From: Vicingaceae bacterium
Lineage (GTDB): Bacteria; Bacteroidota; Bacteroidia; Flavobacteriales_E; Vicingaceae
Reading direction: 5' to 3'
DNA length: 64,000 nt
Assembly: GCA_036567945.1 (NCBI GenBank)
Contig: DATCTM010000020.1
Span: forward strand, 72 to 64,071
Shown: piece by piece, positions 603 to 39,023 of the stretch
Position numbering within the stretch: position 1 is the stretch's first letter
Layout of the letters: the number at the start of each line of letters is the position of its first letter
Position numbers and translations under genes: made by a program
Notes under the pieces: generated by a model
What the model was told of the DNA's origin: nothing
Database searches by the model: none
What the model saw: the letters and a program-made list of their open reading frames with translations, nothing else

Positions 603-611
603 TTAGGAATT

Positions 612-1245: not shown

Positions 1246-1261
1246 ATCTCAAAGTGTAGTT

Positions 1262-1269
1262 TACATTTG
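1262..1269 (+). promoter_or_regulatory. candidate Bacteroidota sigma-A -7 box (TACATTTG)
   Basis: Exact match to TAnnTTTG about 60 nt upstream of the 1332/1350 start codons. Confidence 0.35.
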
Positions 1270-1331
1270 GTTTCTGAAATATCATTTTCAACACAAGGCA
1301 ACTGATAATTAGATAATTCGTCTCTGTGTTG

Positions 1332-1769
1332 ATGATAAACAAAAAACAAATGCAAAAAACCATACTTCTTTTAATTCTTTCAGTTCTACTTTTAACAAAT
1401 AGCAAAGTATTTTCATCAATCCCGTTATTTTCTTTTTCTGAAAAAGAAGTTACCATAGACTTCAAAACAAGTTTAGAGGATGTACTTAAAATCAAAAAAG
1501 AACTTTCATTTTTACTTATTGCCGATTTTACCGATAAAGAGCTAAAAGCTTGGAAAAAACAAGTAAAGTCTGATGAAAATGTAAAAGATATTAAAATAAG
1601 TAAATCAGCTAAAAATGAAGGCTGGGATGTAGTTTTAGTCTTACAAAATGAAATTAACAGGAACAATGCTAAAATACTTTTTTCATTTTCTATTAAAGCC
1701 GATTACATAATTATTGGAAACGAAAAAATATTATTTAATGTATTTGTTTCTAAACATATACCAAATTAA
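1332..1769 (+). CDS. hypothetical secreted protein
   Basis: ORF 1326..1769. First ATG is at 1332, with an alternative at 1350. Signal-peptide-like N-terminus (KTILLLILSVLLLTNSKVFS). No recognisable domain. Confidence 0.55.
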   Translation: MINKKQMQKTILLLILSVLLLTNSKVFSSIPLFSFSEKEVTIDFKTSLEDVLKIKKELSFLLIADFTDKELKAWKKQVKSDENVKDIKISKSAKNEGWDVVLVLQNEINRNNAKILFSFSIKADYIIIGNEKILFNVFVSKHIPN

Positions 1770-1789
1770 ATTTTGTCACTAAAAAAAAC

Positions 1790-4700: not shown

Positions 4701-5857
4701 CTTCAACTACTTCTACATATACAGTTTCTCCTCCGGCAACAACAAGTTACCCCGTTTTTGCTATTGATGGAAATGGATGTACTTCACCAACCATTAATGT
4801 TACCGTAACTGTTACTCCACCATTATCGGTTGTAGCTAGTCCTTCAGACACTAGTATTTGTCCGGGAGAGTCTGTTATTATTTATGCCACTCCTTTCTTT
4901 GGAAATGGTGGCCCTTATACTTACCAATGGAGTAATGGCTCAACAGATTCTAGTCAAGTAGTTTCTCCTGCAACAACAACTGTTTACACCGTTACATTAA
5001 ACGATGGTTGTTCTCCTCCAACTACAGGGACAGTAACTATTAATATTATGCCTTTACCACAAATAAGTTTTACTGCCGACAAATATGAAGCTTGTGAAAC
5101 TCCTGTAGAAACCTTTACTTTCTACAATACTACAGATACCACTGGTGGCATGGTTAGCTCTTCTATTTGGGATTTTGGTGATGGTAGTTCAGCTGTTGGA
5201 GATACTGTTACTCATGCGTACAATAGTACTGGAACTTATGATGTAACCCTTACCATTACTTCTTCTGCTACTGCAGGAGGGTGTACCAATAGTGTTACTT
5301 ATCCAAATTATATTACCATACATCAAAATCCTACTGCTGATTTTTACATGAAAGATAATCCTGCCAACATGTTAAATCCAATAGTAAGTTTTCATGATCA
5401 ATCTTATTTTAATATTGTAGGTTGGGCTTGGGATATTGGTGGTTTAGATTCAAGCTATATACAAAACCCAATGTATGAATTCCCTGTAGATACCGGGCAT
5501 TACCCCATAACACTTACCGTTATTGATGATAATGGATGTATTGGAACTATTACAAAAATATTAGAAGTAGAGGGTGAATTTGGTATTTACATCCCTAACG
5601 CCTTTACTCCTGATTTTGATTTCTTAAATGAAGGTTTTGGTCCGAAAGGGTTTGGTATTAGCGAAGTAAATTACTCTTTCTTTATTTTTGACAGATGGGG
5701 CGAAATTATTTATGAATCGCATACGCTTTTTGAACCTTGGAATGGTACCTACAAAGGCAAGTTAGTACAAAATGGTGTTTATGTTTGGAAACTAGAATTT
5801 CAAGATATAAATGGTAAAAAACATTCCAAAATTGGACATGTAAATGTAATTAGATAA
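1790..5857 (+). CDS. giant cell-surface adhesin-like protein with T9SS type B (gliding-motility-associated) C-terminal sorting domain
   Basis: 1355 aa with a signal peptide and a Cys-rich N-terminal domain. It has 98-aa tandem modules, SprB-type repeats (CSANDGTITITAIDGVSPYQYSINGG), and a PKD domain (WDFGDGS...HAYNSTGTYDVTL). The C-terminus IPNAFTPDFDFLNEGF...FIFDRWGEIIYES...WNGTYKG...GVYVWKLEF is typical of the type B sorting domain. Confidence 0.85.
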   Translation: MMFRFILVLALLFTFIESYTQSTCNNSAPFCTSTGVNFPASTNTTAPVGPDYGCLGSQPNPAWYYLNISTGGNIDITLSNSANVDIDFAAWGPFASQAAMQAAVCGGTSGSPIDCSFSTAANEIVSLPNTQPGEWYMLLITNFSGQPTNITATQTGGSGATNCAILCNITGLTAVPGACNPANNQYDVTGTINVTNPPATGTLTITNSCGGSTVINPPFATSINYTIPGVTANGANCTITATFSADPTCTFTQNYTAPASCTVTCNITGLTAVPGACNPANNQYDVTGTINVTNPPATGTLTITNSCGGSTVINPPFASSINYTIPGVTANGANCTITATFSADPACTLTQNYTAPASCTVSCNINNFTANIGACQPNNTYTVNGTIDFTTGITTDSLVITINDGINTYDTIIYPPYVSPMNWSISGMNSNGNNITITATFAADPSCTVSLNSTAPAACGCVAQIGNFNINMTGNGTTNYILCFGDQINIASNIGYNPPAVANNPPGPAYNPGIGYLIYSCPPTIGTVPSNVPPHDDITNDPCFVGVVGFGSSFNDINSNGQPSWVGPWTNNTLYYVPITFYDTISGTYSYVNTTMPCYDMGNPIAVQYLPEIVSSNPTEDCLDSSFTITITGGLPAINGSNFTASNLSPANASFVNTTTPNGGTIQINGLLNGDMYSFDVVDDNGCPITISGGPFVGLPNANAGVDDTSCVLTYALNAIPSIGTGSWSGPAGVVFNPVNSPTATVTVPSAGTYNFTWTETNTAACVTSDVVTITFSNLSESTVTTPATCSANDGTITITAIDGVSPYQYSINGGTTFQAGNTFSNLAANTYNIVVEDVVGCQVTASYTVNSIAGPTINSSNFTDPTCNGDCDGTITVTGTSPAGGEQYSIDGINFQASGTFNNLCAGIYTVTISDSNSCIDTVSLTLTNPDSVTISASDITICTGQSATLTATAGGGSGSGYTYNWNNGASTTSTYTVSPPATTSYPVFAIDGNGCTSPTINVTVTVTPPLSVVASPSDTSICPGESVIIYATPFFGNGGPYTYQWSNGSTDSSQVVSPATTTVYTVTLNDGCSPPTTGTVTINIMPLPQISFTADKYEACETPVETFTFYNTTDTTGGMVSSSIWDFGDGSSAVGDTVTHAYNSTGTYDVTLTITSSATAGGCTNSVTYPNYITIHQNPTADFYMKDNPANMLNPIVSFHDQSYFNIVGWAWDIGGLDSSYIQNPMYEFPVDTGHYPITLTVIDDNGCIGTITKILEVEGEFGIYIPNAFTPDFDFLNEGFGPKGFGISEVNYSFFIFDRWGEIIYESHTLFEPWNGTYKGKLVQNGVYVWKLEFQDINGKKHSKIGHVNVIR
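2288..2875 (+). repeat. two tandem 294-bp (98-aa) coding modules inside the adhesin
   Basis: Units 2288-2581 and 2582-2875 both start with TGTAATATAACAGG. By hand count there are 4/98 aa differences but about 33/294 nt differences, almost all synonymous. Confidence 0.9.
2876..3169 (+). repeat. third, strongly diverged copy of the 98-aa module
   Basis: Same length and the same Cys spacing (CNI...GAC...ITATFAADPSCT...APAACG), but most other residues are changed. Confidence 0.7.
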
Positions 5858-5863
5858 TTTTTC

Positions 5864-7081
5864 CTAAACCACCTCAGCAACCACAAAGGTACTTCCTCCG
5901 ATAAAAATCAAATCTTGGGCAGTAGCATTTTGTTGAGCCGCTTTGTAAGCTGCCTCAACAGATGAGAAAATTGTGCCTGACAAACCAACTACTGTTGCTT
6001 TTTCTGCTAAAATGTTTACATCTAACGCTCTTGGAATGTTGGCCTGACAAAAATAATAAGTAGCATTTTTAGGCAGTAATTGAAGAATATTGGTAATGTC
6101 TTTATCGTTTACTACTCCCAACACAAAGTGTAATTTTTCAAACGATTGTTGATTGATTTGAGCTAAAATTAATTTTATTCCGGCTTCATTGTGTCCGGTA
6201 TCACAAACCGTTAGTGGTTGCTTATTTAATACTTGCCACCTACCCATTAATCCGGTATTTTTCACCACATTTAGCAAACCTTGTTTGATATGATTTTCAG
6301 CAATTTTCCAACCTAATTGTTGAAGGATTTGAATAGTAGCAAGTACTGTTTTTTTATTTTGTTGCTGATATACTCCTTTTAAATCACTTTCATATTCTTT
6401 AAGTGATAGTTTGTCGGCAAATTGGATAGTAGCGTTCAATTGGGTGGCTTTTTCAATAAAAACGTGTTTTATTTCGGATTGTGTTTCACCAATTATTACC
6501 GGAATAGTTGGTTTTATTATTCCTGCCTTTTCAGCAGCAATTTTGGCTAAGGTATTTCCCAAAAACTGCGTATGATCCATACTAATATTAGTAATTACAG
6601 CCACTTCAGGAGTAACTATATTGGTAGAATCGAGTCTGCCCCCCAAACCAGTTTCTATAATTACTATATCCACTTTTTGGTTGGCAAAATAATGAAACGC
6701 CAACCCTACTGTCCATTCAAAAAAAGAAAGCTGTATTTTTTCAAATTCATTTTTGTATTCCTTAACAAAGTCAATCACTTCATTTTCTGAAATCATAGCT
6801 CCGTTAATTTTTATACGTTCTCTAAAGTCCTTTAAATGAGGAGATGTGTAAAGTCCCACTTTATAACCCGCTTCTTGTAAAACAGATGCCAACATATGTG
6901 AAGTTGAACCCTTGCCATTTGTTCCTGCTATATGTACTGACTTAAATTGTTTTTCAGGATGATTTAATATTTCACTCAAACGATAGGTATTATCTAAATT
7001 GGCTTTATAAGCTGCATTTCCAATACGTTGATACATGGGCAACTGACCAAAAAGATAATCGAGTGTTTCGGGGTAATTCAT
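5864..7081 (-). CDS. folC: bifunctional folylpolyglutamate synthase / dihydrofolate synthase
   Basis: P-loop HIAGTNGKGST and overall Mur-ligase/FolC layout. The ATG at 7081 overlaps the tonB stop (TGATG). The ORF track's first codon, at 7084, is TTG. Confidence 0.85.
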   Translation of the reverse strand: MNYPETLDYLFGQLPMYQRIGNAAYKANLDNTYRLSEILNHPEKQFKSVHIAGTNGKGSTSHMLASVLQEAGYKVGLYTSPHLKDFRERIKINGAMISENEVIDFVKEYKNEFEKIQLSFFEWTVGLAFHYFANQKVDIVIIETGLGGRLDSTNIVTPEVAVITNISMDHTQFLGNTLAKIAAEKAGIIKPTIPVIIGETQSEIKHVFIEKATQLNATIQFADKLSLKEYESDLKGVYQQQNKKTVLATIQILQQLGWKIAENHIKQGLLNVVKNTGLMGRWQVLNKQPLTVCDTGHNEAGIKLILAQINQQSFEKLHFVLGVVNDKDITNILQLLPKNATYYFCQANIPRALDVNILAEKATVVGLSGTIFSSVEAAYKAAQQNATAQDLIFIGGSTFVVAEVV

Positions 7082-7863
7082 CAATTAAGAATGTAAACAA
7101 AAGTCATGGTACCTTTTTGTTCTGCTGGAGCATCTGCTTTTACATTGAAACGAGCTTCTAGTGCTGCTTCTTTAGAAATTTTATACAAGGTTGGGTTGGT
7201 AGTACTAGAACCTCTTGCTCCAGGTGTTGCTCTAATCACTTTTCCGTTTTTATCCACCACAATTTCTACCACCACTTTTCCATCTTCTTGTGTTGGATTA
7301 TTTGGTTTTTTCACTTTTACCATCGATCTTCCAGCCAAAGAAAAGTCAACACCATTACCTGTTCCTCCTCCCGTATAATTATTGCTGTTGGGGTCACCAC
7401 TTTCATCACCTTGATCTCCTGGAGTTCCTGTATTTCCATCTCCAGTAGAATTGTTATTAGGGTTATTCAAAGCATTTAAAGCATTAGATAAATTTTCATC
7501 CACTGTTTGCTCTGTTTGTTGCGTTGTTGTATTTTGATTAGTGGTAGTAGTTGTATTTTGCGAAGCATTCATTTCTACAGATTCTTCCGTAGTTGTTAAA
7601 GCATTTTCTTGAGCTGAACTTGGCGTAGTAGTTTCGCTTGTTGTAGTATTTTCTGAAGTAGTAGTAGTTTCTGAAGAAGAGGGTTGAGTATCGCCCATAC
7701 CTTCATCGGTTGTTCCAAAATTAATCACCATTCCTCCTGCATTTTCCTCAGGTGGGTCTTGGTAAGTCATCCCAAATTGAATAAACAGCAACAACAACAG
7801 CAAGTGAAACAAGATGGTTCCAATTACTCCGGTTCTACTATTTTTTTCTTGTAAGATTTCCAT
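7081..7863 (-). CDS. tonB: energy transducer TonB
   Basis: N-terminal TM anchor (VIGTILFHLLLLLLFIQF). C-terminal TonB-type domain (GKVVVEIVVDKNGKVIRATPGARGSS...EARF). It lies last in the exbB-exbD-tonB order. The linker is Thr/Asn/Gln-rich rather than Pro-rich. Confidence 0.75.
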   Translation of the reverse strand: MEILQEKNSRTGVIGTILFHLLLLLLFIQFGMTYQDPPEENAGGMVINFGTTDEGMGDTQPSSSETTTTSENTTTSETTTPSSAQENALTTTEESVEMNASQNTTTTTNQNTTTQQTEQTVDENLSNALNALNNPNNNSTGDGNTGTPGDQGDESGDPNSNNYTGGGTGNGVDFSLAGRSMVKVKKPNNPTQEDGKVVVEIVVDKNGKVIRATPGARGSSTTNPTLYKISKEAALEARFNVKADAPAEQKGTMTFVYILN

Positions 7864-7902
7864 TTATTCTGCTTGATGCATTAATTTTATTTATTCCATA
7901 AT

Positions 7903-8295
7903 TTATTTTGGAGAAGTAGCTAACACCAATTTCAATTTATTTCTATTCGCAATATCCATAATTACCACCACATTTTCTATCGGCACGCTTTTTTCTGCTC
8001 GCAATATAATTCCCGGATTTTCTTCATTAGCCGTTTGCGATAATAATAAGGTTTCTAATTCCTCAACAGCTACTTCATCTTTATTTACATAATACCTTAA
8101 ATCTTCAGTAATACTAACATTCACCGTTTGCGGACGAGGAGCTGAATGACTTGCTTTAGGCAAAATCACATCCAACGCATTAGGACTAATTAAGGTAGAA
8201 GCGATGATGAAAAACACCAACAACAAAAACACAATATCCGTCATACTAGACATATTGAAGTTGGTATTTACTCTATTTTTTGAACGTATAGCCAT
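7903..8295 (-). CDS. exbD: biopolymer transporter ExbD/TolR
   Basis: 130 aa with the N-terminal TM motif MTDIVFLLLVFF and typical ExbD length and context. Confidence 0.85.
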   Translation of the reverse strand: MAIRSKNRVNTNFNMSSMTDIVFLLLVFFIIASTLISPNALDVILPKASHSAPRPQTVNVSITEDLRYYVNKDEVAVEELETLLLSQTANEENPGIILRAEKSVPIENVVVIMDIANRNKLKLVLATSPK

Positions 8296-8372
8296 TTTTA
8301 TTAGTTAAAAGTTTGTAAAGTATAAAGTGTGACAGTTTGTAAAGTCTATTCTCTAATTCTCATATCCACACA

Positions 8373-9089
8373 TCAATTAGCTGGCTCATGTAAAATATCT
8401 AAAAATTCGGTAGTTCTAGCTTCCATAATAAAAACAATTTTCTCCACTTTTGCTACCAATGTATTGTAGCCAATATAAGCAACAATACCTACAATAAGTC
8501 CGGCTACAGTAGTGGTCATGGCTGTAAAAATTCCTTCCGAAAGGGTATTCAAATCAACACCTCCACCACCTTTAGACATTTCATGGAAAACCAAAATCAT
8601 TCCGATAACTGTTCCTAAGAAACCAATCATTGGTGCAGCACCAGAGATAGTTGCCAAGGTAGATAAATTTTTTTCTAGTTTGTTCAGTTCTAATTTTCCA
8701 GTAGTCTCTACAGCAGTTCCAATATCACTTAATGGTTTCCCAATTCTAGAAATACCTTTTTCTATCATTTTTGCCACAGGCGATGCATTAGATTTACATA
8801 ACGTTTTAGCTGCATCCATCTTACCTTCATGTATAAAATCTTTAATTTGATTCATAAAATTGGCATCTTCTTTACTGGCATTTTTAATAGCCAAGTATCT
8901 TTCTATTATAATATAAACTGCTAGTATAGATAATATCAACAGCGTTATCATAATAATTGCTCCACCTATTCCACCGGAGCTTACCAATTCCCATATAGAA
9001 AGTGTTTTTTCTTCAGAAACTGCTTCTTGAACCACTGTTGATGTTGTGTCAGCAGCCACATTTACTTGTAATAACAAAGATTGAATCAT
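8373..9089 (-). CDS. exbB: MotA/TolQ/ExbB proton channel protein
   Basis: Three TM segments and the conserved C-terminal region GAAPMIGFLGTVIGMI...EGIFTAMTTTVAGL. Confidence 0.85.
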   Translation of the reverse strand: MIQSLLLQVNVAADTTSTVVQEAVSEEKTLSIWELVSSGGIGGAIIMITLLILSILAVYIIIERYLAIKNASKEDANFMNQIKDFIHEGKMDAAKTLCKSNASPVAKMIEKGISRIGKPLSDIGTAVETTGKLELNKLEKNLSTLATISGAAPMIGFLGTVIGMILVFHEMSKGGGGVDLNTLSEGIFTAMTTTVAGLIVGIVAYIGYNTLVAKVEKIVFIMEARTTEFLDILHEPAN

Positions 9090-9220
9090 AATTTATAGAT
9101 TTTTATAGTGCTAAAATACGGTTGATTGATGATGATAGTAAGAACAAAAAATGTAATTTGTAAACAGCGAACTGTTAGCTTTTATTGTCCGGAATATCTT
9201 AAAACTTATTAAAAAAGCAA

Positions 9221-10642
9221 TTATTTACGCTCGAACAATTGTAAAAAAACGGTAGAAGAATTCAGCTCATGAATGGGTTTATAACCTGAATATAAAGCTT
9301 CTAATTCTGCATCGCTAAAACCATTAAACACATTGGAATAGAGTATATAATTATCTTTACCTATATTTTTTGGTTTGAATGAACGAATATCTTCTTCCAT
9401 AAAAATGATAGCATGGTTTCCTAAAACTGGAAAAGCAGCTCCTACTTCATGATATGGAATTTCATTAGCATCTAGATAGTCATTCATCTCTAACTGCAAA
9501 CTATAAAAAGGCAAGTGAGCCAAACTAGCATCCCAACCTTGGGCAATTCTATTAGGATACACCCAAAAATTGCCTGCTAAAAGTGAAACCGTTAACACTC
9601 CAAAAATACTTTTTTTAACTACCGAAGAGGTAATCACTTTATTTGCATAATAGCCTGCTGCTAACAAAATCAACAAATATAAAGGCAATAAATACCTATG
9701 TCCGGTAAGTTGCTGATAATACAAAAATGGAATAATGAAAATGAAGACACTAACTATTATCAATATTAATAATTGTAATGATGTTGATTCTCTCAACAAC
9801 TTTTTTCTATACATTATTGCCATAATTAAAAGAGCAAATACTACCAACACTCTTCCAAAATCTAGTATTCGCCAAGCAAATATTCCTATGTTATATAGCG
9901 CTCCGTTAAAATCATTAGCAATTCTACCTTCTTCCCAAGCAGAATTGGGATGCGACCAAAACCACCCTGTTGCCTTATAGTGATAAAAATGATACCCTAT
10001 AAAAAGTAGAAATGGAAAAGTATAAAACAATGATTTCATTAATAAAAGATGTAATGGGAAACCTCTAAAATGTTGTCTTCTTAATGAAAAAATAAAATCG
10101 ATTAAAAAAATGGTAAATGCTGCTACTATTCCTCTCATACTAATTAAAAACAAGCCAATAAGAGCAAACATTAAAAGCATTTTTCTATTTTCGAAAACAG
10201 CATTAAGTGCCAATAAAAAACAAAAAAGTAATACAATATCTGGAGAAACCATTGCTGCTTGACTTAAAAAAGTGGGATCAACCAGCATCATTAACATCGT
10301 TAATACCAACACATAAGAAGTTCCCATAAATCGTTTGGCTAATATATAAACCTGATAAACAATTCCCAACAAAAATGGCAACATAGCAAAATGAGCTATT
10401 GCCAACGATTTACCAAAAAACTGCCATACTTTAGCTATGTACATTGCCAATAATGGCACATGCCCCGTATCAATCTGATTAGGAAGAATAAAAGAACGAA
10501 AATTATTTTCATAAAAAAAAGTTGCCGGAGCAGCTACTAAATTAATGGTATCCCAAAAAAAGAAATTATTGGAAACATAAGCCGTAAAGAATATGAAAAA
10601 CAGAAAAAATGGAATTAATATTTGAACCTTTCGACTAATCAT
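9221..10642 (-). CDS. polytopic membrane protein, GT-C fold (ArnT/PMT-like) glycosyltransferase candidate
   Basis: 473 aa with more than 10 hydrophobic helices and a soluble C-terminal tail. The family assignment rests on architecture only. Confidence 0.45.
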   Translation of the reverse strand: MISRKVQILIPFFLFFIFFTAYVSNNFFFWDTINLVAAPATFFYENNFRSFILPNQIDTGHVPLLAMYIAKVWQFFGKSLAIAHFAMLPFLLGIVYQVYILAKRFMGTSYVLVLTMLMMLVDPTFLSQAAMVSPDIVLLFCFLLALNAVFENRKMLLMFALIGLFLISMRGIVAAFTIFLIDFIFSLRRQHFRGFPLHLLLMKSLFYTFPFLLFIGYHFYHYKATGWFWSHPNSAWEEGRIANDFNGALYNIGIFAWRILDFGRVLVVFALLIMAIMYRKKLLRESTSLQLLILIIVSVFIFIIPFLYYQQLTGHRYLLPLYLLILLAAGYYANKVITSSVVKKSIFGVLTVSLLAGNFWVYPNRIAQGWDASLAHLPFYSLQLEMNDYLDANEIPYHEVGAAFPVLGNHAIIFMEEDIRSFKPKNIGKDNYILYSNVFNGFSDAELEALYSGYKPIHELNSSTVFLQLFERK

Positions 10643-10680
10643 TAAGCTTTTTTAAGGTTCAAAGATAACAATGTGAATGG

Positions 10681-19346: not shown

Positions 19347-21773
19347 CTAAAAAACCACCCCAAAACTCATTTTTACAGCAAAATTATCGAAAGTTTTATC
19401 AAAAGCATAAGGCCCGTAGCGATAGAAACCTCCTACTCCAAAAGTAGTACTGTTTAATTTGAAAATATTGTTGATGATTAATCCTGATTCGTAAAAACCT
19501 TTTTCCATGGTATTAAAAACCACTCCTTGGTGCAACTCGGCATGGTCTAATTTCCCAACTCCCGCACTAGTAGTAATAACAAACTCTGGTTGGAATTTTT
19601 TAATTTTCAGCAATAAACCTTTAAAACTATGTCGGAAATGAAAATGTACGTATTGGTTAGACAAAAACTCGTAAGGCAACATGGTTTCAAAAGCATTTTC
19701 GGTAGAAAGCAATAAAAAATCATCGGTTCTATTAACACCAATAGGATGGTTGAGCATGTGTTGCGGTACTTTACCATCTGTATAACCCACTTCAACTCTA
19801 AAATAAGGCTGACCAAAATTTCTGGTATTAAATTTTTTCTCTGTTCTAAAAGTATAACGTGTATAGGTATATTCTCCGTCATATTGATTAATGCCTCTTT
19901 CAATTTTGGCATACAAAATCGGATATTTGGTTGCTGTTCGGTAGCTATTAGAAAGTGTTTTTAATATCTTTTCTTTATAAGCATACCTCAACTCCACACC
20001 TACTTCATTAAACAGGTAATTTCTATCTCTGATAAAAGTGGAATTATCTATTTGCTTTACAAAATAATAATCATCGGTAACTTCTACTTTTTGTTGATTT
20101 ACAAAAGCGTAAGTTTTTAAATACCTCAACGTTCTGAAGCTTAATCGAGCTTGCATTTTTTCGTAATTATTCATTCTGTCTAAATACAGTACTCGAGTTC
20201 CTGCCGAAGAAATAAAAGGCACTTTGTAATCTCTAAAACCAACTACCCCCGGCTCAGCAACATCTTTATCGTAAGAAAAATTGATCGCTATATTGTTGTT
20301 TTTTTCAAGCAAGAAAGTGGCATCTCCACCATATTTTTCTTCTTTATCTTTAAATCCGTAAGCTCCATAACCACCAATAGAAAACCATTTAGAAAAATGC
20401 TGATTGGTATGAAATCCGGCACCTAGTCTAAACCCTTCGTAATTGTTATAGTTTACAAAACGGTTCAAATCTAAATCTACCACTCCCCACTTTAATTTTC
20501 CGGTTAAAATGGCTTCCAATCCACCTAATTTTTTATCAAAATTTTCTGCTCTACCAATACTATCAATTACCTGATAAGTTTTTTTCTCTTGAGCTGTTAA
20601 GGTATCACCACGGTATTCATCCCAAAAAGCTTCATCTCTTTTGTTAGCTTTTAAATCAATTTCGGTATCTATATGGCTAAATTCTTTGTTTTTTAATTCA
20701 GGATTAATCACCACATTTTTAATATAAGTATTGCTAATTCCCACCATACTAAATGAATTAATAGTTGCATTGTTCATAATAAATTTAGAACTCAACTGCT
20801 TAGGAAACCATTTACCTTCTATCTTTTCGTACTGTTGACGAATTTTAATGGTTAACGAAGCATCCTGCTCATAAGGTTCCGCAATAACATTTTGCAAAGC
20901 ATAACCATCTGTATTAATATAAAGCAATCCTTGTAAAGCATCAAAATTTTTACCCTTAAGTGGTGTAAAAGATATAATGTAAACCGAATCTGCTCCACTA
21001 ATAATAGTGTCTTCAATTATAAACAAATATTTGTTGTGACTATTGGTAGAGATAGGATTCAAATACGCTTTATCCATCACATAAATATTGGTGTTGTAAA
21101 AAGAGAACGATTGCAACTGTGTTCCCAGTAGTGCAAAAGTGGGATTTTGCAGACCCGAAACCCTTGAAGCAATAACTTTTTCATAATTTTTACTCGGTAC
21201 TTTATATTTACGTTGAGTGATGGATTCCATCATAAAAATATGCTGTGTTTTTAAAATACTATCTGTTCTAATCACCATAGAATCAGCTTTAGCTAATTTT
21301 TCGGGGTCGTTAACCAAAGCACTATCCATTTCAGCAGTCACATATAATTTACTATACGAATCGTAAGTAAAATCTATGCTTTTTTCCGGATTAAGCTGCG
21401 TACGATTATCTACCACTTTTTTAATAATTCTATGGGCAGGATTTTCTCCCGGAAGGATTTTTACCTCGTCCAACTGAAAAGTAGTTGCCGACATGTAAAT
21501 AATTAAAAAATCTTTTCCGCTAAGTTGTATTTCTTTAGATTCATAACCAACATAACTCAATTTAATTGATTGAATGGGTGACTTGGTATTAAAAACAAAA
21601 TTGCCGTCAATATCGGTAGTTGCTCCGTAATTTTTATCCGAAAGAATATTAACAAAAGCTAGTGGTTGCTTTGATTTATCATCCAACACCTTACCTTTAA
21701 AAGTGAATTGAGCAAGCGCACTTGAACACAATAAAAGCAAAAGCCATATAACACCTAATTGTTTACTCAACAT
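19347..21773 (-). CDS. carboxypeptidase-regulatory-like domain + DUF5686-like large outer-membrane-associated protein
   Basis: Signal peptide; FKGKVLDDKSKQPLAFVNI...TDIDGNFVF (CarboxypepD_reg-like); ILPGENPAHRIIKKVVDNR motif recalled for DUF5686 proteins; beta-rich C-terminus ending in F. Confidence 0.55.
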   Translation of the reverse strand: MLSKQLGVIWLLLLLCSSALAQFTFKGKVLDDKSKQPLAFVNILSDKNYGATTDIDGNFVFNTKSPIQSIKLSYVGYESKEIQLSGKDFLIIYMSATTFQLDEVKILPGENPAHRIIKKVVDNRTQLNPEKSIDFTYDSYSKLYVTAEMDSALVNDPEKLAKADSMVIRTDSILKTQHIFMMESITQRKYKVPSKNYEKVIASRVSGLQNPTFALLGTQLQSFSFYNTNIYVMDKAYLNPISTNSHNKYLFIIEDTIISGADSVYIISFTPLKGKNFDALQGLLYINTDGYALQNVIAEPYEQDASLTIKIRQQYEKIEGKWFPKQLSSKFIMNNATINSFSMVGISNTYIKNVVINPELKNKEFSHIDTEIDLKANKRDEAFWDEYRGDTLTAQEKKTYQVIDSIGRAENFDKKLGGLEAILTGKLKWGVVDLDLNRFVNYNNYEGFRLGAGFHTNQHFSKWFSIGGYGAYGFKDKEEKYGGDATFLLEKNNNIAINFSYDKDVAEPGVVGFRDYKVPFISSAGTRVLYLDRMNNYEKMQARLSFRTLRYLKTYAFVNQQKVEVTDDYYFVKQIDNSTFIRDRNYLFNEVGVELRYAYKEKILKTLSNSYRTATKYPILYAKIERGINQYDGEYTYTRYTFRTEKKFNTRNFGQPYFRVEVGYTDGKVPQHMLNHPIGVNRTDDFLLLSTENAFETMLPYEFLSNQYVHFHFRHSFKGLLLKIKKFQPEFVITTSAGVGKLDHAELHQGVVFNTMEKGFYESGLIINNIFKLNSTTFGVGGFYRYGPYAFDKTFDNFAVKMSFGVVF

Positions 21774-21909
21774 GGATAAAAAAGGAAAATCTGCCGTAAA
21801 AATACAATTATAATTGATGTTACAAAAAACGGTACTGTTTTACTTTTTTGTTGGATTATTTTTTTGGTGTTGTTGCTTGGTATTTGGTAAATCTTTATTT
21901 AAAATTAAG

Positions 21910-32437: not shown

Positions 32438-33811
32438 CTATTTACTACAAGAATCAATAGCTTTTATCATATCTTGTTGAGTAATGATATGGTATTTATC
32501 TTTATCATAACTTACAATAACGGCTTTTGCTCCCTGCTGAAAATGTTTTGAGACGCTTATTACATCAGTATTTTCATCCACCATCGGAAATGGCTCTCCC
32601 ATAATATTTTTTACAGGAAGTTCTTTTAGTTCAGGATTTTCAAGCAATTTAGCAAATAACTGATTATCAGTTAACGAGCCTACAAACTTGCCATCTTCAA
32701 TAACAGGTACTTGAGAAATGGCATATTGGTTCATTAAAATAATTACTTGAGAAACAGGTGTGTCAGTAGTTACGGTTACTAAATGTTTGCCTTTATGGTC
32801 TGAAATTAAATCTAACGCATTAGATTTTTCTTCCTCCAAAAAGCCTCTGTCTCTCATCCAATCATCATTAAACATTTTACCAACATAACGGCTACCATGA
32901 TCATGAAATAAAACTACTACCACGTCATCTTTTTTCAATTCATCTTTTAGTTGTAACACCCCTTTAATAGCACTTCCTGCTGAATTTCCAACAAAAATCC
33001 CTTCTTCTTTAGCTAATTTTCGTTGATAAACTGCTGCATCTTTATCGGTTACTTTTTCAAATTTATCAATTACGCTAAAATCAACATTTTTAGGTAAAAT
33101 ATCTTCACCAATTCCTTCGGTGATGTAAGGATAAATCTCATTTTCATCAAAAATTCCTGTTTCATGGTATTTCTTAAACACAGAACCGTAAGTATCTATT
33201 CCCCAAATTTTAATGTTAGGATTTTTCTCTTTTAAATATTTACCAACTCCTGAAACTGTTCCTCCTGTACCTACTCCTACCACAAAATGAGTAATTTTTC
33301 CTTCTGTTTGTTCCCAAATTTCCGGTCCGGTAGTTAAGTAATGAGCTTTAGTATTCGATGGATTATCATACTGATTTACATACCAAGAATTAGGAATTTC
33401 AGTAGCTAATCGTTTAGAAACAGAGTAATACGAACGAGGATCCTCTGGAGACACATTGGTTGGACAAACATGTACTTCTGCTCCAACTGCTCTTAAAATA
33501 TCCATCTTTTCTTTACTTTGTTTGTCGCTCAACACACAAATTAACTTATATCCTTTTATAATAGCTACCAACGCCAAGCCCATTCCTGTATTTCCAGATG
33601 TTCCCTCAATAATAGTTCCTCCCGGTTTTAGTCTGCCATCAGCTTCAGCATCTTCAATCATTTGCAAAGCCATTCTGTCTTTTACAGAATTTCCCGGATT
33701 AGTAGTTTCTACCTTTGCCAACACCAATGCATCAACATCTTTGCAGATTTTATTTAATTTAACCAATGGCGTATTTCCTATGGTCTCTAGTATGTTATTG
33801 TAATATTGCAT
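32438..33811 (-). CDS. cystathionine beta-synthase-type PLP enzyme with C-terminal CBS-domain pair
   Basis: PLP lysine motif NPGNSVKDR, GTSGNTG, GVGTGGT, and a C-terminal tandem CBS region of about 120 aa. Confidence 0.8.
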   Translation of the reverse strand: MQYYNNILETIGNTPLVKLNKICKDVDALVLAKVETTNPGNSVKDRMALQMIEDAEADGRLKPGGTIIEGTSGNTGMGLALVAIIKGYKLICVLSDKQSKEKMDILRAVGAEVHVCPTNVSPEDPRSYYSVSKRLATEIPNSWYVNQYDNPSNTKAHYLTTGPEIWEQTEGKITHFVVGVGTGGTVSGVGKYLKEKNPNIKIWGIDTYGSVFKKYHETGIFDENEIYPYITEGIGEDILPKNVDFSVIDKFEKVTDKDAAVYQRKLAKEEGIFVGNSAGSAIKGVLQLKDELKKDDVVVVLFHDHGSRYVGKMFNDDWMRDRGFLEEEKSNALDLISDHKGKHLVTVTTDTPVSQVIILMNQYAISQVPVIEDGKFVGSLTDNQLFAKLLENPELKELPVKNIMGEPFPMVDENTDVISVSKHFQQGAKAVIVSYDKDKYHIITQQDMIKAIDSCSK

Positions 33812-33843
33812 GAACTAATTTTTCTGAATTTTATAATTGACTG

Positions 33844-33851
33844 CAAAAGTA
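33844..33851 (-). promoter_or_regulatory. candidate -7 box (TACTTTTG on minus strand) for the CBS gene
   Basis: Reverse complement of CAAAAGTA; lies 32 nt upstream of the ATG at 33811. Confidence 0.4.
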
Positions 33852-34060
33852 ATAAATAGCTAATACAATAATACACTCTTTATTGTAATATTAATAGCCC
33901 TTCAGCTATCGCGAGTTTTTAACTCTTGATTTAGCAATTTATATTAAACGGAGCAAGTTATGCTACACCAAACTAGCACCAACAAGAAGAAGGTTGGGAA
34001 GAAAACAGCTACAAGCAGCAATTAATAATATGAAAACTATAAAAAGTCCGATTGAATTAC

Positions 34061-34068
34061 TACATTTG
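34061..34068 (+). promoter_or_regulatory. candidate -7 box (TACATTTG) for the 392-aa island gene
   Basis: TAnnTTTG match 64 nt upstream of the ATG at 34133. The 28-bp palindrome lies between the box and the ATG. Confidence 0.4.
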
Positions 34069-34084
34069 GGATAAAGATACAGTG

Positions 34085-34112
34085 CGGATAAACGTACCGG
34101 TACGTTTATCCG
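34085..34112. promoter_or_regulatory. perfect 28-bp palindrome (operator or leader hairpin)
   Basis: CGGATAAACGTACC|GGTACGTTTATCCG with no mismatch; GC-richer than its surroundings. Confidence 0.6.
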
Positions 34113-34132
34113 GTTGTTGTATATAATAAGTA

Positions 34133-35311
34133 ATGAGCTTTGACTTCATTGAACATAAAGAATCAAATAATCTAATTCCTCTCAAAATTGAGAATAAGGA
34201 AAGGTACTACCTAGACCTTTTAAATATTGAACATAGTTGGACAGGACGATTAGATGCTCAATTAGCGAATACTTTCATATTAGAATCAAATCAACTTCTG
34301 ATAAATGCTATAACTCTATTTGAACAGGGATACTTTGATTGTGCATACTATTCCTTAAGGCAGTCTCTTGAAGTATCAACTACAATGACATATTTGATTG
34401 ACAATGATGAGGAAACGAGAAGCAAAGAATTAAGAAAATGGAAAGATCAAGGTCATTTTCCAATGTATGGTCAGATGATAAAGTTCCTTGATGCTAATCA
34501 GACTGTATTCTCGGATATAAAGGAACAAATGTCTGAATACTTTGAGGATTTAAATACCGTAAAAAAGAAGCTAAATAAGTACGTTCATAAGCAAGGGTTT
34601 AATACATTCTACATATCAAAGAATCATCCTCTAAACAGAAAAAAAGACCAAAGCAATTTCATAGCAGAGTTTGAAAGCTTCATGAAAAAGTGTATCGGAG
34701 CGGTTGCCGTTTTCAGGTTAACAATTGATCCCTTCCCTATTTTACTAATGGATGAGGATATGTATTCAAGGACTGAAGACACCATGACAAAAGGATACAA
34801 TGACGATTTCATTGAGCAGTATATAGGGACAGAACATATCGAATGTTATAAAAAAACTGAGATGTATCTCAATCATTATAATTCTCTAATTCAGGAAGAA
34901 GCGAAAGAATCATACACATCTGATGTTGTAAAAAATCAATTCATTGATAAAGAGCATATTGACAATATTTTAAAACAAAAACATCTGCTTTCCCAACATG
35001 ATTTAGTAGCTGTAGTACTTTGTGGATTTTCAAAAAAGGTTTCAAAGATTTACTGCATTGGTGGCTTACATATGTATTTCTCTAGCACAAAATCAACTAG
35101 AGATAATTGGTCATGGAGTAGTGAGGATTTCAAGAATTTTGAATCAAGCAAAAACGCATTTAATCAAACTTATGATGAATCCTTTATCTCCTTTATTGAA
35201 TTATATGGTGAGTCCTATTTTATGGAGCATAATGAGAAGTTAGATGAAAATGAAATTAAGGAATTAGAAATATTAAAAATACTACACACAACAATGGCTA
35301 AAAAATCATAG
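34133..35311 (+). CDS. hypothetical cytoplasmic protein, N-terminal half with weak HEPN/AbiV-like features
   Basis: 392 aa with no signal peptide. Helical segment LINAITLFEQGYFDCAYYSLRQSLEVSTTMTYL and a later KKLNKYVHKQG resemble HEPN-type helices, but there is no canonical RxxxxH. The C-terminal half is unrecognisable. Confidence 0.6.
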   Translation: MSFDFIEHKESNNLIPLKIENKERYYLDLLNIEHSWTGRLDAQLANTFILESNQLLINAITLFEQGYFDCAYYSLRQSLEVSTTMTYLIDNDEETRSKELRKWKDQGHFPMYGQMIKFLDANQTVFSDIKEQMSEYFEDLNTVKKKLNKYVHKQGFNTFYISKNHPLNRKKDQSNFIAEFESFMKKCIGAVAVFRLTIDPFPILLMDEDMYSRTEDTMTKGYNDDFIEQYIGTEHIECYKKTEMYLNHYNSLIQEEAKESYTSDVVKNQFIDKEHIDNILKQKHLLSQHDLVAVVLCGFSKKVSKIYCIGGLHMYFSSTKSTRDNWSWSSEDFKNFESSKNAFNQTYDESFISFIELYGESYFMEHNEKLDENEIKELEILKILHTTMAKKS

Positions 35312-35375
35312 CTGCCCTATGGGTCAGCAACGCTTTTTAGCCGGAACGTTGGGTATAATTAAAAACGCATATTAA

Positions 35376-36053
35376 GTGAAATCAAAAAACAACTATGTAA
35401 TTATTATTTTTCTCAGTTTCGTAACATTAGTTGCCTGTAATAATTATTTAGAAAAAGAAGAAATTTCTGAACTTCTGGAATTTACAAATTCAAAAGACAT
35501 TGAGGTTTATGATGAAGGAAAAGATTTAGTTATAGATATTTCAGAAAGTAACCTTAAAGATTTTGAAGTTTGTCAATTATACTCTAGTTCGGTAGCAGTA
35601 ACAGTATTTAACATAACAAATAAATCAAAAAAGATCTTATTTCATGACGGCACTTGTATTGTAAACTTTCTTTCGTCAGACTCAATAAAACATACCTTTC
35701 GTTTTCCCTATACTGAATTATTTAAAATAGTAGACATTTATAAGACTAATCAAGAACTTCTGCAATTCATTTGTAATAAAGACAGAAAATTAGTTGAACA
35801 GAAGATCGACAATTCAGTTGTCAGTTCAAAAGACAAAGAATTAATCGTTGATGCTTTAATAAATAGTGATTTATGTATAAACAATACTGATTATATAAAT
35901 TACGGCTATTACATTGACAACGAAAATTCTCTAAACACAAATATGACAAGCCTTTATGTGAATTTTACTTACCCAAATGGAGATGTTAAAAATGTAATCT
36001 TTAACTATCTTGAAAAATCTAAAAAGCTTGTTGGTGTTGAAGAAATTACGTAA
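35376..36053 (+). CDS. hypothetical lipoprotein
   Basis: GTG start; lipobox LSFVTLVAC; 225 aa with no recognisable domain. Confidence 0.55.
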   Translation: MKSKNNYVIIIFLSFVTLVACNNYLEKEEISELLEFTNSKDIEVYDEGKDLVIDISESNLKDFEVCQLYSSSVAVTVFNITNKSKKILFHDGTCIVNFLSSDSIKHTFRFPYTELFKIVDIYKTNQELLQFICNKDRKLVEQKIDNSVVSSKDKELIVDALINSDLCINNTDYINYGYYIDNENSLNTNMTSLYVNFTYPNGDVKNVIFNYLEKSKKLVGVEEIT

Positions 36054-36117
36054 CAAAAACAACACCCAACAATCTGTCATATTGCATTTTGCTTGCGAGC
36101 AGCTTAGTTGTTTGTAA

Positions 36118-36150
36118 ATTTTGTAGGTAATTGCCATTCATTTTGTAGGT
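36118..36150 (+). repeat. two direct copies of ATTTTGTAGGT spaced 22 bp apart
   Basis: Copies at 36118-36128 and 36140-36150. An inverted 9-mer copy, CTACAAAAT, lies at 36238-36246. Confidence 0.7.
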
Positions 36151-36327
36151 GGTTATTTATAAGCTTTACAAATTGCATCTTTGCCTCAGACAGCGAACAT
36201 CTTCCCTATCTGAAAATGATTTGCTCTTTGTTACATCTACAAAATTTCATTACTTTGGTGCTATTAATAAACTGATTAAAACGCAACATACAGTTGTCGT
36301 TAAAATGCACAAAAAAAAATTAACCAC

Positions 36328-36354
36328 ATAAAAAAATCCCCAAGTTGGGGATTT
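36328..36354 (-). terminator. intrinsic terminator of the 148-aa gene (hairpin could also act on the plus strand)
   Basis: Stem AAATCCCCA/TGGGGATTT with a 3-nt loop. T7 run on the minus strand and ATATTTT on the plus strand. Confidence 0.8.
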
Positions 36355-36362
36355 ATATTTTC

Positions 36363-36809
36363 TTAAAAATCGAAATCAGGATCCGGAGCCTTCACATACG
36401 ATTTTTTCTTAGGTTTAATTTTCTTCACAAACAAAATGGTTATCAGTTCATCATCCACAGTAATCATGGTTCTGCTCATGCCATTAGTAATGTTAATTTC
36501 CTGATCGGGATACCTGAATTTTCTACTAATTTTCTCGAAAGTATTGTCTTCAAACTTTAAATACATTTCATTTACATTTATTTGTTGGTTTTTAACCAGC
36601 ACTTTTCCGTAATAGCATTCTGCCATACTTCCTTTTCTAAAACTTATGATAACATCATCATAAACACCATCTTCAACTTCATAAGCGCCTCTCGTCTCAA
36701 AAACTGTAGCGTATTTTTGATAACAAGTTACTTGATCTTCTTCTGTATCTTGAGCATAAAAAGCTCCTGCTATAAATAGTAAGGATAAACTGAGTAAAAT
36801 TTTTTTCAT
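36363..36809 (-). CDS. hypothetical secreted protein
   Basis: Signal peptide MKKILLSLSLLFIAGAFYAQ; 148 aa; no recognised domain. Confidence 0.6.
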   Translation of the reverse strand: MKKILLSLSLLFIAGAFYAQDTEEDQVTCYQKYATVFETRGAYEVEDGVYDDVIISFRKGSMAECYYGKVLVKNQQINVNEMYLKFEDNTFEKISRKFRYPDQEINITNGMSRTMITVDDELITILFVKKIKPKKKSYVKAPDPDFDF

Positions 36810-36906: not shown

Positions 36907-37482
36907 ATGAGTATAAAACTAATCAAAAATAATTTTATAGAGGCAAAACAACTTTTAGACCATTTTATAAATGAGGAGAAAAATTTAGAAAAAATTGCTC
37001 AAGCAGGCGATTTGTTAGTGCAAGTTTTTAAAAACGGAGGCACTGCTTTTTCATGTGGAAACGGTGGTTCCATGTGCGATGCTATCCATTTTGCTGAAGA
37101 ATTAACAGGTAAGTTCAGAGAAGAAAGAATGGCTTTACCTGCTATTGCAATTTCCGATTCAGGTTACTTAAGTTGTGTAGGAAACGATTACGGTTATGAT
37201 GAAATTTTTGCACGTTTTATCTTAGGAGTTGCTAAAAAAGGTGATGTTTTGTTAGCCATTAGTACTAGTGGAAACTCTAAAAATATTTTAAGAGCGGCAG
37301 AAGTTGCTAAAAGTAAAGGTGTTTTTGTTATCGGACTTACAGGAAAAGATGGCGGTAAATTAGCTAATTTATGTGATGTGGAAATAAGAGTTCCTCACAA
37401 TGGCTATGCAGATAGAACACAAGAAATACACATTAAAATCATTCATTCATTAATTCATTATATTGAAGAAAAAATAATTTAA
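36907..37482 (+). CDS. gmhA: D-sedoheptulose-7-phosphate isomerase (SIS domain)
   Basis: [17 protein letters not shown] and ISTSGNS motifs; 191 aa. Confidence 0.85.
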
Positions 37483-37484
37483 AA

Positions 37485-39023
37485 ATGTTGGTAAAAACTT
37501 ACGGAAGTGCAGTTGTTGGTGTTGATGCTCTTACTATTACGGTAGAAGTAAATGTTGATAGAGGCATGAAATTTTTCATGGTAGGCTTACCCGATAATGC
37601 CGTAAAAGAAAGTCAACAACGTATTGAAGCCGCATTAAAAAATGTTGGCTACAGAATGCCCGGAAAAAAAATAGTAGTTAACATGGCTCCTGCCGATATT
37701 CGTAAAGAAGGTTCTGCTTACGATTTAACCATTGCCATGGGAATTTTGGCAGCATCCGGACAAATAGCCAATGAAGAAGTAAGTAATTATGTAATAATGG
37801 GAGAGCTTTCGCTTGACGGAAGTTTGCAACCTATAAAAGGCGCGTTGCCTATTGCTATTCAGGCACGAAAAGAAGGTTTTAAAGGCTTTATCTTACCCAA
37901 CGAAAATGCTCGAGAAGCGGCTATTGTTGATGGTATTGATGTTTTTGGAGTGAGTAACATTAGTGAAGTAATCAATTTTTTTAATGGAGAAACACAACTG
38001 GAATCAACTATAGTGGACACCCGAAAAGAATTTTATCAGAACCTTACCAAAGTAGATTTCGATTTTGAAGATGTAAAGGGGCAAGAAAATATTAAACGAG
38101 CTTTAGAAATTGCTGCTGCGGGAGGGCATAATGTTATTTTAATTGGTCCACCCGGAGCAGGAAAAACCATGTTGGCAAAACGTTTACCAACCATACTTCC
38201 TCCACTTTCTTTAATGGAAGCGTTGGAAACCACCAAAATCCATTCCGTTGGAGGGAAATTATCTAAAGAAACTTCTTTAATAAGCATAAGACCATTTCGC
38301 TCTCCACATCATACTATTTCTGATGTAGCCTTAGTTGGTGGCGGTGGATTTCCTCAGCCGGGAGAAATTTCTTTGGCTCATAATGGCGTATTATTTTTAG
38401 ATGAATTGCCTGAATTTAAACGAACAGTTTTAGAAGTGCTTCGTCAGCCAATTGAAGACAGGAAAGTATCTATTTCCAGGGCAAAATTTACGGTAGATTA
38501 TCCTGCAAGTTTTATGTTAGTAGCTTCAATGAACCCTTGTCCTTGTGGTTACTACAACCATCCTGAAAAAGATTGTGTTTGCTCTCCGGGTGTGGTTCAA
38601 AAATACCTCAGCAAAATTTCCGGTCCATTATTAGACAGAATTGATTTACATGTAGAAGTTACACCGGTAAGTTTTAGTGAACTTAGCACTACTGCTATTG
38701 GTGAATCGAGTGAGGTTATCAGAAATAGAGTAATTAAAGCGAGAGAAATCCAGTCTGAACGCTATAAAGACAAAGAGAGTGTTTATGCTAATGCACAAAT
38801 ATCCAGCAAAACCATTAAAGAAATTTGCGAAATTGATAACGTAGGTAAAGATTTACTTAAAAATGCTATGAATAAGTTAGGATTATCTGCTCGAGCATAC
38901 GATAGAATTTTAAAAGTTGCCCGAACCATTGCCGACTTAGAGGCATCTGAAAATATAAAAAGTGAACACCTTGCAGAAGCAATTCAATACAGAAGTTTGG
39001 ATAGAGAAGGTTGGGCAGGATAA
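37485..39023 (+). CDS. comM: YifB/ComM family Mg-chelatase-like ATPase
   Basis: Lon-like N-terminal domain; Walker [10 protein letters not shown]; Walker [11 protein letters not shown]; C-terminal ChlI-like region. Confidence 0.88.

Follow-up and report, generated by a model that had tools for sequence, protein, structure and literature searches.

Two co-oriented genes lie side by side between housekeeping genes in a 64,000-nucleotide stretch of DNA from a Vicingaceae bacterium (contig DATCTM010000020.1 of assembly GCA_036567945.1; the whole stretch is called the window here), and the locus raises the question of whether they form one system or are neighbors for another reason. Gene 1 encodes a 392-aa protein and gene 2 a 225-aa lipoprotein. 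An original prediction, made from the sequence alone, had read them as a candidate defence or stress module in which a cytoplasmic HEPN-like protein is paired with an envelope protein. What it described at the locus was confirmed: the two open reading frames (ORFs), the GTG start and the lipobox of gene 2, and the long noncoding gaps of 321 bp upstream (33812-34132) and 309 bp downstream (36054-36362) of the pair. The two genes are separated by 64 bp, and GC is ~0.27 over gene 2 vs ~0.34 in the surroundings. Our answer to the question is a different one. We propose, with a probability of about 0.68, that 33899-36321 is a small array of independent integron-type cassettes, with gene 1 as a stand-alone anti-phage candidate and gene 2 as an orphan immunity gene; the proposed two-gene system is unsupported.

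The segment that carries both genes is an insertion. Seven conspecific metagenome contigs (L001-L007), collected because they encode the exact 148-aa protein found to the right of the pair, have flanks 96.6-98.8% identical to those of the window and miss the whole segment. In all seven, the CBS gene lies 134 bp from the 148-aa gene; blastn homology ends at 33898 and resumes at 36322, and the empty site holds 6-10 bp instead, from which it follows that 33899-36321 was inserted. The accessory slot suspected earlier is therefore real, and the synteny comparison suggested with it found the CBS and 148-aa genes adjacent where the gene pair is absent. Flavobacteriales bacterium BRH_c54 (L024, 98% identical) has the same insertion up to 36085, followed by 165 different bases, so that the window derives from a near relation of this MAG and is not identical with it.

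Within the insertion, each gene has boundaries of its own. In the loci with a 92% gene-1 homolog (L018-L023), DNA homology begins with GTTGT 17 nt upstream of the ATG and extends to ...GCCGGGACGTT, 40 nt past the stop; that between the window and L018 covers cassette 1 alone, ending ...ACGTT, with none beyond. For an 85% homolog (L008), homology is limited to the ORF. Gene 2 is present at the same chromosomal locus in L010-L017, whose core flanks share only 92.6-93.1% identity with the window, against 99.5% for 35345-36085 by blastn. This homology begins exactly at AACGTTGGGT / AACGTTGGGTATAAT, and gene 2 is preceded there by a different 128-nt palindromic site (seen in L013), not by gene 1. 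The end point 36085 recurs in L024, X3, X12 and X16, and contigs of both gene sets break at cassette boundaries, as expected at assembly-graph forks. By these alignments, genes 1 and 2 are units with separate boundaries and histories, not a pair. Cassette 1 would span the positions between G and TT (written G/TT below) at 34116 and at 35348, and cassette 2 would begin at 35348.

A hairpin of the attC type closes cassette 1. Positions 35281-35359 fold on both strands into an imperfect hairpin (-14 kcal/mol, z about -4) with 7 bp between the R boxes, an unpaired spacer (AAT against GGAAC), and 9 bp between the L boxes with one extrahelical T, so that R''/R' and L''/L' pairing, the unpaired spacer and the extrahelical base of an attC fold are all present. 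Analogous sites were found in L013, L018, L026, L033, L035 and L045. The 5' boundary box of the cassette, 34116-34127, is complementary to 35281-35292 at 10/12 positions. The core boxes contain the invariant AAC and GTT; ACCCAAC/GTTGGGT fit RYYYAAC / GTTRRRY, and the commonest box, ACACAAC/GTTGTGT, deviates from it at one position. The L boxes vary between sites (GGCTAAAAA, GTATAAAA, GCACTATAGCAA, GGTTTCAACGCGG), each still pairing with its partner. A crude structural attC scan gave a background of a few hits per 20-64 kb in shuffled sequence; a single attC-like hit is therefore no evidence alone, and the argument rests on the breakpoints and on the complementarity of the R boxes. As for the breakpoints, the window and L018, the window and L010-L017, and the window and the copies in sequencing run X1 (described below) all part at GTT, which places the boundaries at G/TT.

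The same ends recur around gene 1 in other Bacteroidota, namely Psychroflexus (L026), Polaribacter (L034), Bizionia (L035) and Bacteroidales (L045), and partly in L095. At the 5' position of these cassettes, L026, L034, L035 and L045 read GTTGTGTGTAAT, 25-45 nt upstream of the ATG; the last codons (LHTT) consist of ACTACACACAAC, and the 3' end is an imperfect palindrome of 68-170 nt that ends in GTT (L018, L026, L034, L035, L045). The clearest case is a 6.4-kb contig of Bizionia hallyeonensis (L035), in which seven consecutive sites, that of the gene-1 cassette included, lie between co-oriented ORFs. In six of its cassettes (Table 1), the 5' and 3' boxes of each cassette are complementary to one another, at 36/36 N6 positions in all, which is explained by circular cassettes recombining at G/TT. 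On the Balneola sp. chromosome OZ244952.1 (L027, 9946-9999), the start of the gene-1 homolog is immediately preceded by GTTGGGTGTTATACCAAA in three tandem copies; these R'-type boxes could have been left by several rounds of recombination at a single site.

A 65-nt element upstream of gene 1, which may serve as a leader or as a recombination site, contains the only + strand TAnnTTTG in the island. When Logan contigs of the source-like run X1 were aligned to the region, two further contigs were found to carry copies of 34054-34118, each with six differences to the window, at similar depth (295 and 266 vs 337-407). The copies diverge from the window on both sides, on the right exactly after 34118, and one of them continues with GTT followed by AGCCATAAT...ATG, the cassette-start pattern again. 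A minor X1 contig (depth 21) joins 34118 to 36298, skipping both genes and 36086-36297, with GTTGT at both breakpoints. Across strains and contigs, the locus occurs in at least five states (Table 1). The distal segment, 36086-36321, is unmatched in every fetched locus, L024 and X3 having 159-165 other bases there, and could be what is left of a noncoding cassette. At 36111-36172 it contains ATTTTGTAGGT twice in direct orientation, plus an inverted partner (inverted repeats I2 and I4). The long noncoding flanks of the gene pair are recombination-site material and array ends, not operon regulatory regions. In the explanation we propose, a strain-variable hotspot between the CBS and 148-aa genes would hold a satellite array, and genes 1 and 2 would be neighbors only because cassettes accumulate at one recombination site.

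The cargo of cassette 1 would be a stand-alone cytoplasmic protein of the DUF5677 (HEPN-like) kind, spread horizontally over many phyla. Gene 1 matches Pfam DUF5677 (PF18928) with 27.5 bits vs a gathering cutoff of 27.1, over residues 51-153 and profile positions 10-114 of 166, and a match at E<=0.01 was obtained for 21/28 members of its family. By this borderline match, gene 1 is assigned to a distant DUF5677 subfamily, which agrees with the earlier impression of a HEPN-like protein that lacks Rx4-6H. Invariant residues are R76/Q77/E80 on one helix and N148-K149-x-x-H152-K-Q-G after another. No Pfam HEPN_AbiV match was found at E<=1, and gene 1 qualifies neither as AbiV nor as a canonical HEPN RNase. 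The AlphaFold2 model (pLDDT 86.4, pTM 0.80) is helical in its N-terminal half, with an alpha/beta domain at the C-terminus; no relative of solved structure was found when the PDB was searched with a sequence profile. Weak partial Foldseek matches to HEPN structures (2hsb, 4nqf) and to Roadblock/LAMTOR-like proteins were not relied on. The family has more than 847 members with 45-92% identity over the full length, and gene 1 occurs in 156 stretches among 185,579 species (one genome per species) of Bacteroidota, Bacillota, Gammaproteobacteria (Vibrio/Photobacterium/Shewanella), Planctomycetota, Spirochaetota, Nitrospirota, Elusimicrobiota and Fusobacteriota and in one archaeon (Methanobrevibacter). 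This scatter across phyla marks it as a horizontally spread accessory gene. It is essentially not phage- or plasmid-borne, with none in 50,697 phage records, 1 in 72,556 plasmid records and 1 in 2.9 million IMG/VR contigs.

What gene 1 may do is suggested by the company it keeps. All-against-all clustering of the neighbors in 80 loci found no conserved partner. Recombinases are found near it (serine recombinases at 9 loci and tyrosine integrases at 8), as are Fic (6), AbiEi (4, adjacent), Abi_C (3, adjacent), HEPN_Cthe2314 (3, adjacent), Drt8/UG13b reverse transcriptases (3), AAA_21/AriA-like ATPases with RloB, DUF4365 and ResIII. In L104 (Logan SRR31802784; locus 2591-7288), a full-length Avs4 (AVAST type 4; 2071 bits) lies 94 bp downstream of an 81% gene-1 homolog on the same strand. 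Close homologs adjoin a Lit-type Peptidase_U49 (L008) and SLFN_AlbA_2 (L109), and in L026 a Mrr_cat nuclease lies inside the homolog's own cassette. DUF5677 has also been reported in a preprint to be enriched beside defence-marking serine recombinases (PMC12632615). A defence role is the best reading of these neighborhoods, and we give it even odds. Under this reading, gene 1 would most likely be a single-gene anti-phage or abortive-infection effector, whose helical N-terminal domain would supply the activity via R76/Q77/E80 and N148-K-x-x-H152 and whose alpha/beta C-terminal domain would sense infection. Of the small defence module first suspected, the defence role of gene 1 thus remains plausible from neighborhoods elsewhere, and the pairing with gene 2 does not.

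The cargo of cassette 2 would be a lipoprotein of two NTF2-like domains that faces the periplasm or the envelope. Its lipobox reads L-V-A-C, and the cysteine (Cys21) is invariant in 10/10 family members. A word-indexed search returned a 99% copy only, and gene 2 was taken for a strict ORFan until exhaustive HMMER searching of 1.84 billion representatives found ten relatives with 24-49% identity, all of them lipoproteins of ~215 aa. PADLOC, NCBIfam and PHROGs gave no match. The AlphaFold2 model (pLDDT 86.9) contains two NTF2-like domains, and the best PDB matches in Foldseek are the DUF3887 structure 4hyz and NTF2-like proteins (E 2e-3 to 5e-2). Immunity proteins of an Imm-NTF2 type were reportedly described by Zhang, Iyer and Aravind in 2012.

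The position of two relatives points to an immunity role. In L114 (GCA_044862235.1, JBIYRK010000003.1), a 38% relative lies 12 nt after the gene of a 3072-aa RHS-repeat protein (1-4988, PKD_6) and precedes a second RHS giant, which carries Amidase_2 (5779-10675, >2130 aa). No Pfam family matches the last ~400 aa of the first RHS protein, which are a candidate for a new Rhs toxin domain whose immunity partner would be the gene-2 family. In L110 (JGI 3300028029), a 49% relative is separated by 5 nt from an upstream ORF with an RHS-like C-terminus, the last 286 residues of which are 54.5% identical to the C-terminus of the 3072-aa protein; this ORF was also considered as a relative of gene 1 and is unrelated to it. 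A conserved toxin C-terminal domain with a small gene downstream is the signature of polymorphic toxin and immunity pairs, so that the relatives of gene 2 sit where immunity genes do, beside RHS-toxin C-termini and not beside DUF5677 proteins. The window has no toxin gene, and gene 2 itself is therefore best read as an orphan immunity cassette. From gene order in its relatives, it is probably an immunity lipoprotein against an Rhs-type toxin C-terminal domain, and it would most likely neutralise such a domain in an Rhs-family polymorphic toxin delivered by competitors. Also in L110 (1640-1900), downstream of the gene-2 relative, two tandem attC-like units of ~110 nt with homologous loops read CCCTAAC-AGC-TTGCCAT...ATGGCA-TAGCG-GTTGTAG, which indicates that relatives of gene 2 also travel as cassettes.

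Several results weigh against the proposed explanation. A convincing full hairpin is missing from cassette 2 of the window (fold z = +1.4), and the R boxes of the window are partly decayed, with own-end N6 complementarity of 4/6 in cassette 1 (GTTGTATATAAT) and 5/6 in cassette 2 (GTTGGGTATAAT vs ACAACACCCAAC). GTTGTGT, the R' consensus here, does not fit GTTRRRY, and spacers of 0-3 against 4-7 nt set the sites apart from classical attC. The left junction at 33899 has no GTT site, and the island in L024 may be flanked by an imperfect 8-bp direct repeat (TTAATAGC / TTAATAAGC), which fits transposition better. A tyrosine-recombinase hidden Markov model built from the integrases of the fetched loci found no tyrosine recombinase or integron integrase among ORFs of at least 150 aa in the window, and intI, attI and Pc beside the array, as in a complete integron, were not found there. 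Nor do the related Bacteroidota loci have an IntI-type integrase: those present are of the Arm-DNA-bind_5 type, and the integrases of L028, L034 and L079, which have such domains, score 40-49 bits on TIGR02249 vs a cutoff of 265. Because no integrase lies nearby, the array would be CALIN-like or rAID-like. To count as rAID-1, an array needs at least two co-oriented low-GC genes behind an XerD-like recombinase at its 5' end, with an identity of at least 44% to BF9343_RS08045; the island has the genes, and no recombinase was found beside it. In gene 1, the motif position reads L147-N-K-Y-V-H152 and the site of the expected R is variable or L, so that the canonical Rx4-6H is missing; PADLOC (AbiV included), NCBIfam and PHROGs gave no match, and Foldseek found no structural neighbor at E<0.5 in the PDB or BFVD. 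One DUF5677 ORF, outside the five active candidates of the same preprint, gave no protection against six Enterococcus phages (PMC12632615). The immunity role of gene 2 is drawn from gene order alone, and the putative toxin domain has no Pfam match. The island nevertheless resembles an integron cassette array in structure and crossover; it is not a complete integron, as no IntI was found.

The lack of an integrase, the possible direct repeat in L024 and the few chance matches of the attC scan would also suit an island that arrived by homologous recombination or transposition, with the palindromes acting as terminators or REP-like repeats and no site-specific cassettes. We consider this improbable, since it leaves unexplained why homology breaks exactly at GTT in four comparisons, why the 5' and own 3' boxes in L035 are complementary at all 36 N6 positions, and why L boxes covary across sites. 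Somewhat unlikely, in our estimate, is that the cassettes are real and belong to a Bacteroidota-specific integron-like system whose non-IntI recombinase (XerD-like, rAID-1-type or other) lies elsewhere. The 12-bp R boxes (GTT-N6-AAT / ACT-N6-AAC) with their conserved internal mismatch, the GTATAAAA/TTATAC L boxes and the unusual spacers speak for such a system, as do the near absence of integrons from Bacteroidetes in IntegronFinder surveys and the existence of rAID-1 arrays with XerD-like recombinases in Bacteroidales. Against it, no recombinase can be linked to any array here, classical attC sites have the same G/TT crossover and the same R''-L''-L'-R' layout, and integrons have nonetheless been reported in Bacteroidota.

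The cargo allows two further readings. The island may be mobile and gene 1 not anti-phage, in which case it would be immunity- or antitoxin-like, an addiction element or a stress-response enzyme; this is unlikely, in our judgment, although the similar Bacteroidales arrays hold immunity genes, which cassette 2 resembles, and the failed phage assay and the missing catalytic HEPN motif would fit. The identity of 45-70% kept across phyla and in one archaeon is unlike that of fast-evolving immunity proteins, no toxin gene recurs beside gene 1, and its neighbors are mostly phage-defence genes rather than polymorphic toxins. The other reading is the original one, in which genes 1 and 2 form one defence or stress module, for example an envelope sensor with a cytoplasmic effector. 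In its favor, the genes are next to each other in the same orientation with a short gap, a single Bacteroidetes-type -7 box lies upstream of both, and the window and BRH_c54 each have the two together. We nonetheless regard it as very improbable: the two genes do not co-occur elsewhere, an outcome that the original prediction itself had named as refuting it, and none of the 80 gene-1 loci has a gene-2 relative beside it; in another lineage (L013), a different cassette precedes gene 2; the relatives of gene 2 come after RHS proteins unrelated to gene 1; and the recombination boundaries are separate and the divergence of the two genes is very different. An array of independent cassettes therefore remains our preferred explanation of the locus.

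Table 1. Coordinates of the island, its boxes and the flanking genes in the window, with the box pairs of L035 and the states of the locus
Feature	Position	Strand	Remarks
Strain-specific insertion, ~2.4 kb	33899-36321		Between CBS promoter region and 148-aa gene terminator; blastn vs empty-site contigs
Left-end noncoding segment	33899-34053		Found only in L024 (95.7% identity); otherwise unmatched in fetched loci
65-nt repeated leader or recombination-site element	34054-34118	+	Fold -12.4 kcal/mol, z = -4.95
-7-like box of the element, TACATTTG	34061-34068
Perfect 28-bp palindrome of the element	34085-34112
GTTGTT of the element	34113-34118
5' boundary box of cassette 1, R' type, GTTGTATATAAT	34116-34127	+	L018 homology starts here at GTTGT
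Gene 1	34133-35311	+	ATG start, 392 aa
attC-like site of cassette 1	35281-35359	+
R'' of cassette 1, ACTACACACAAC	35281-35292		Then spacer AAT
L'' of cassette 1, GGCTAAAAAA	35296-35305		Then 28-nt variable loop
L' of cassette 1, TTTTTAGCC	35334-35342		Then spacer GGAAC
R' of cassette 1 site, GTTGGGTATAAT	35348-35359
Cassette 2 as common to lineages	35349-36085	+	blastn vs L010-L017
Gene 2	35376-36053	+	GTG start, 225 aa
R''-type box of cassette 2, ACAACACCCAAC	36059-36070	+	Then AAT; direct repeat D7 with cassette-1 R''
Distal window-specific segment of array	36086-36321		GTT boxes at 36107 (GTTGTTTGTAAA) and 36293 (GTTGT)
CBS/PALP gene	32438-33811	-	Left flank
148-aa gene	36363-36809	-	Right flank
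gmhA-like SIS gene	36907-37482
comM	37485-39023		Intact in window, 512 aa
L035 cassette			5' GTT-AGCCAC-AAT; own 3' ACT-GTGGCT-AAC
L035 cassette			5' GTT-GGCAAC-AAT; own 3' ACT-GTTGCC-AAC
L035 cassette			5' GTT-GTACAT-AAT; own 3' CT-ATGTAC-AAC
L035 cassette			5' GTT-GTGTGT-AAT; own 3' ACT-ACACAC-AAC
L035 cassette			5' GTT-GCAAGT-AAT; own 3' ACT-ACTTGC-AAC
L035 cassette			5' GTT-GGCAAC-CAT; own 3' ACG-GTTGCC-AAC
Locus state 1			Empty
Locus state 2			Gene 1 + gene 2 + X (window)
Locus state 3			Gene 1 + gene 2 + Y (BRH_c54, X3)
Locus state 4			Other cassette + gene 2 + Y' (L010-L017)
Locus state 5			Another content (X1 minor contig)

The genes to the right of the island vary as well. In the conspecific contigs L002 and L003 (locus 964-5325), comM is shortened to 292 aa and followed by three extra genes of 421 aa, 247 aa and 413 aa, the last with a NOV_C domain; comM is a classic site of integration, and this arrangement indicates the insertion of a further island into it. 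L010 and L011 (93% relative; locus 2038-3081) have two extra genes at the gmhA-comM junction (window 37482/37485, a gap of 2 bp), one for a 53-aa HTH_3 protein and one for a 281-aa protein without assignment, which makes this junction the third variable slot in 4 kb. The first 116 of bases 1-144 of L024 match window 21731-21846 and not the collinear position, which, on this alignment, indicates a probable rearrangement or indel of ~2.4 kb that sets L024 apart from the window, its close relative, upstream of the studied region. A link of gene 1 to the Vibrio superintegron was considered and rejected: the homolog in L057 (Vibrio sp. F13 chromosome 2) does not lie in a VCR/attC array, and the 134-nt repeats there are not palindromic AAC...GTT sites.

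For the locus, a speculative two-gene system is replaced by a hotspot where site-specific recombination would stack unrelated protective genes. If this is true, integron-type gene capture extends to the marine and environmental Flavobacteriia, in which surveys have found next to none, the pattern GTT-N6-AAT ... ACT-N6-AAC with a hairpin becomes a simple signature for mining the cassette metagenome of this class, and phage defence and anti-toxin immunity share one platform. The DUF5677 subfamily, large, strongly conserved across phyla and found beside Avs4, Lit, Mrr, DRT and Abi, is a good candidate for single-gene defence screens, and the lipoprotein family is a candidate immunity partner of an unannotated Rhs toxin domain. 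More tentatively, and with less than even confidence, we suggest that Flavobacteriia, perhaps the wider Bacteroidota, may own an integron-like lineage with 12-bp R boxes and GTATAAAA/TTATAC L boxes, in which a trans-acting recombinase, maybe not a classical IntI, would serve satellite arrays headed by the promoter-bearing 65-nt hairpin element. Such arrays would pool phage-defence and interbacterial immunity genes and be largely unseen by current integron finders; the island of the window would be one of them and the DUF5677 protein among their most widely exported cargoes.

Compared with known systems, the cargo proteins come close to two families. Gene 1 shares with AbiV, other HEPN Abi proteins and DUF5677 a helical N-terminal domain, which stands at the DUF5677 threshold, and, like the Abi proteins, it is a single gene, sporadic, horizontally transferred and found in defence islands; it differs from them in having neither an AbiV profile match nor Rx4-6H and in an extra C-terminal domain of ~190 aa without a known relative. 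The relatives of gene 2 lie directly 3' of RHS giants and are conserved along with the C-terminal domain of these, as in Rhs toxin/RhsI pairs, and the family consists of small lipoproteins with an NTF2-like fold; like other orphan immunity genes, the window gene has no toxin gene with it. In contrast to the known pairs, the toxin domain is unannotated here, and the immunity role of the family is predicted.

The array itself is like a classical integron in its co-oriented ORFs, each with a 3' imperfect palindromic R''-L''-loop-L'-R' site, in the unpaired spacer, the extrahelical base and the G/TT boundaries, in a cassette 5' end complementary to its own 3' box, and in strain-variable content with small defence genes as cargo. 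Such genes are abundant in integron cassettes and established as cargo in Vibrio (10.1101/2024.07.02.601686). It differs in that no IntI, attI or Pc was found, in the R box extended to 12 bp, in a core that is GTTGTGT-like and not GTTRRRY, in shorter R''-side spacers, and in a host class, Flavobacteriia, from which integrons are rarely reported; the likeness to attC is one of fold and layout. The rAID-1 arrays of Bacteroidales (Ross et al. 2019) are defined by a 5' XerD-like recombinase, of which there is none here, and the likeness of their repeats to ours is by description. These arrays belong to the same phylum, consist of low-GC co-oriented small genes with integron-like intergenic repeats, and pool orphan immunity genes (10.1101/471110), the type of cargo that fits cassette 2; the array described here additionally carries a phage-defence-type gene.

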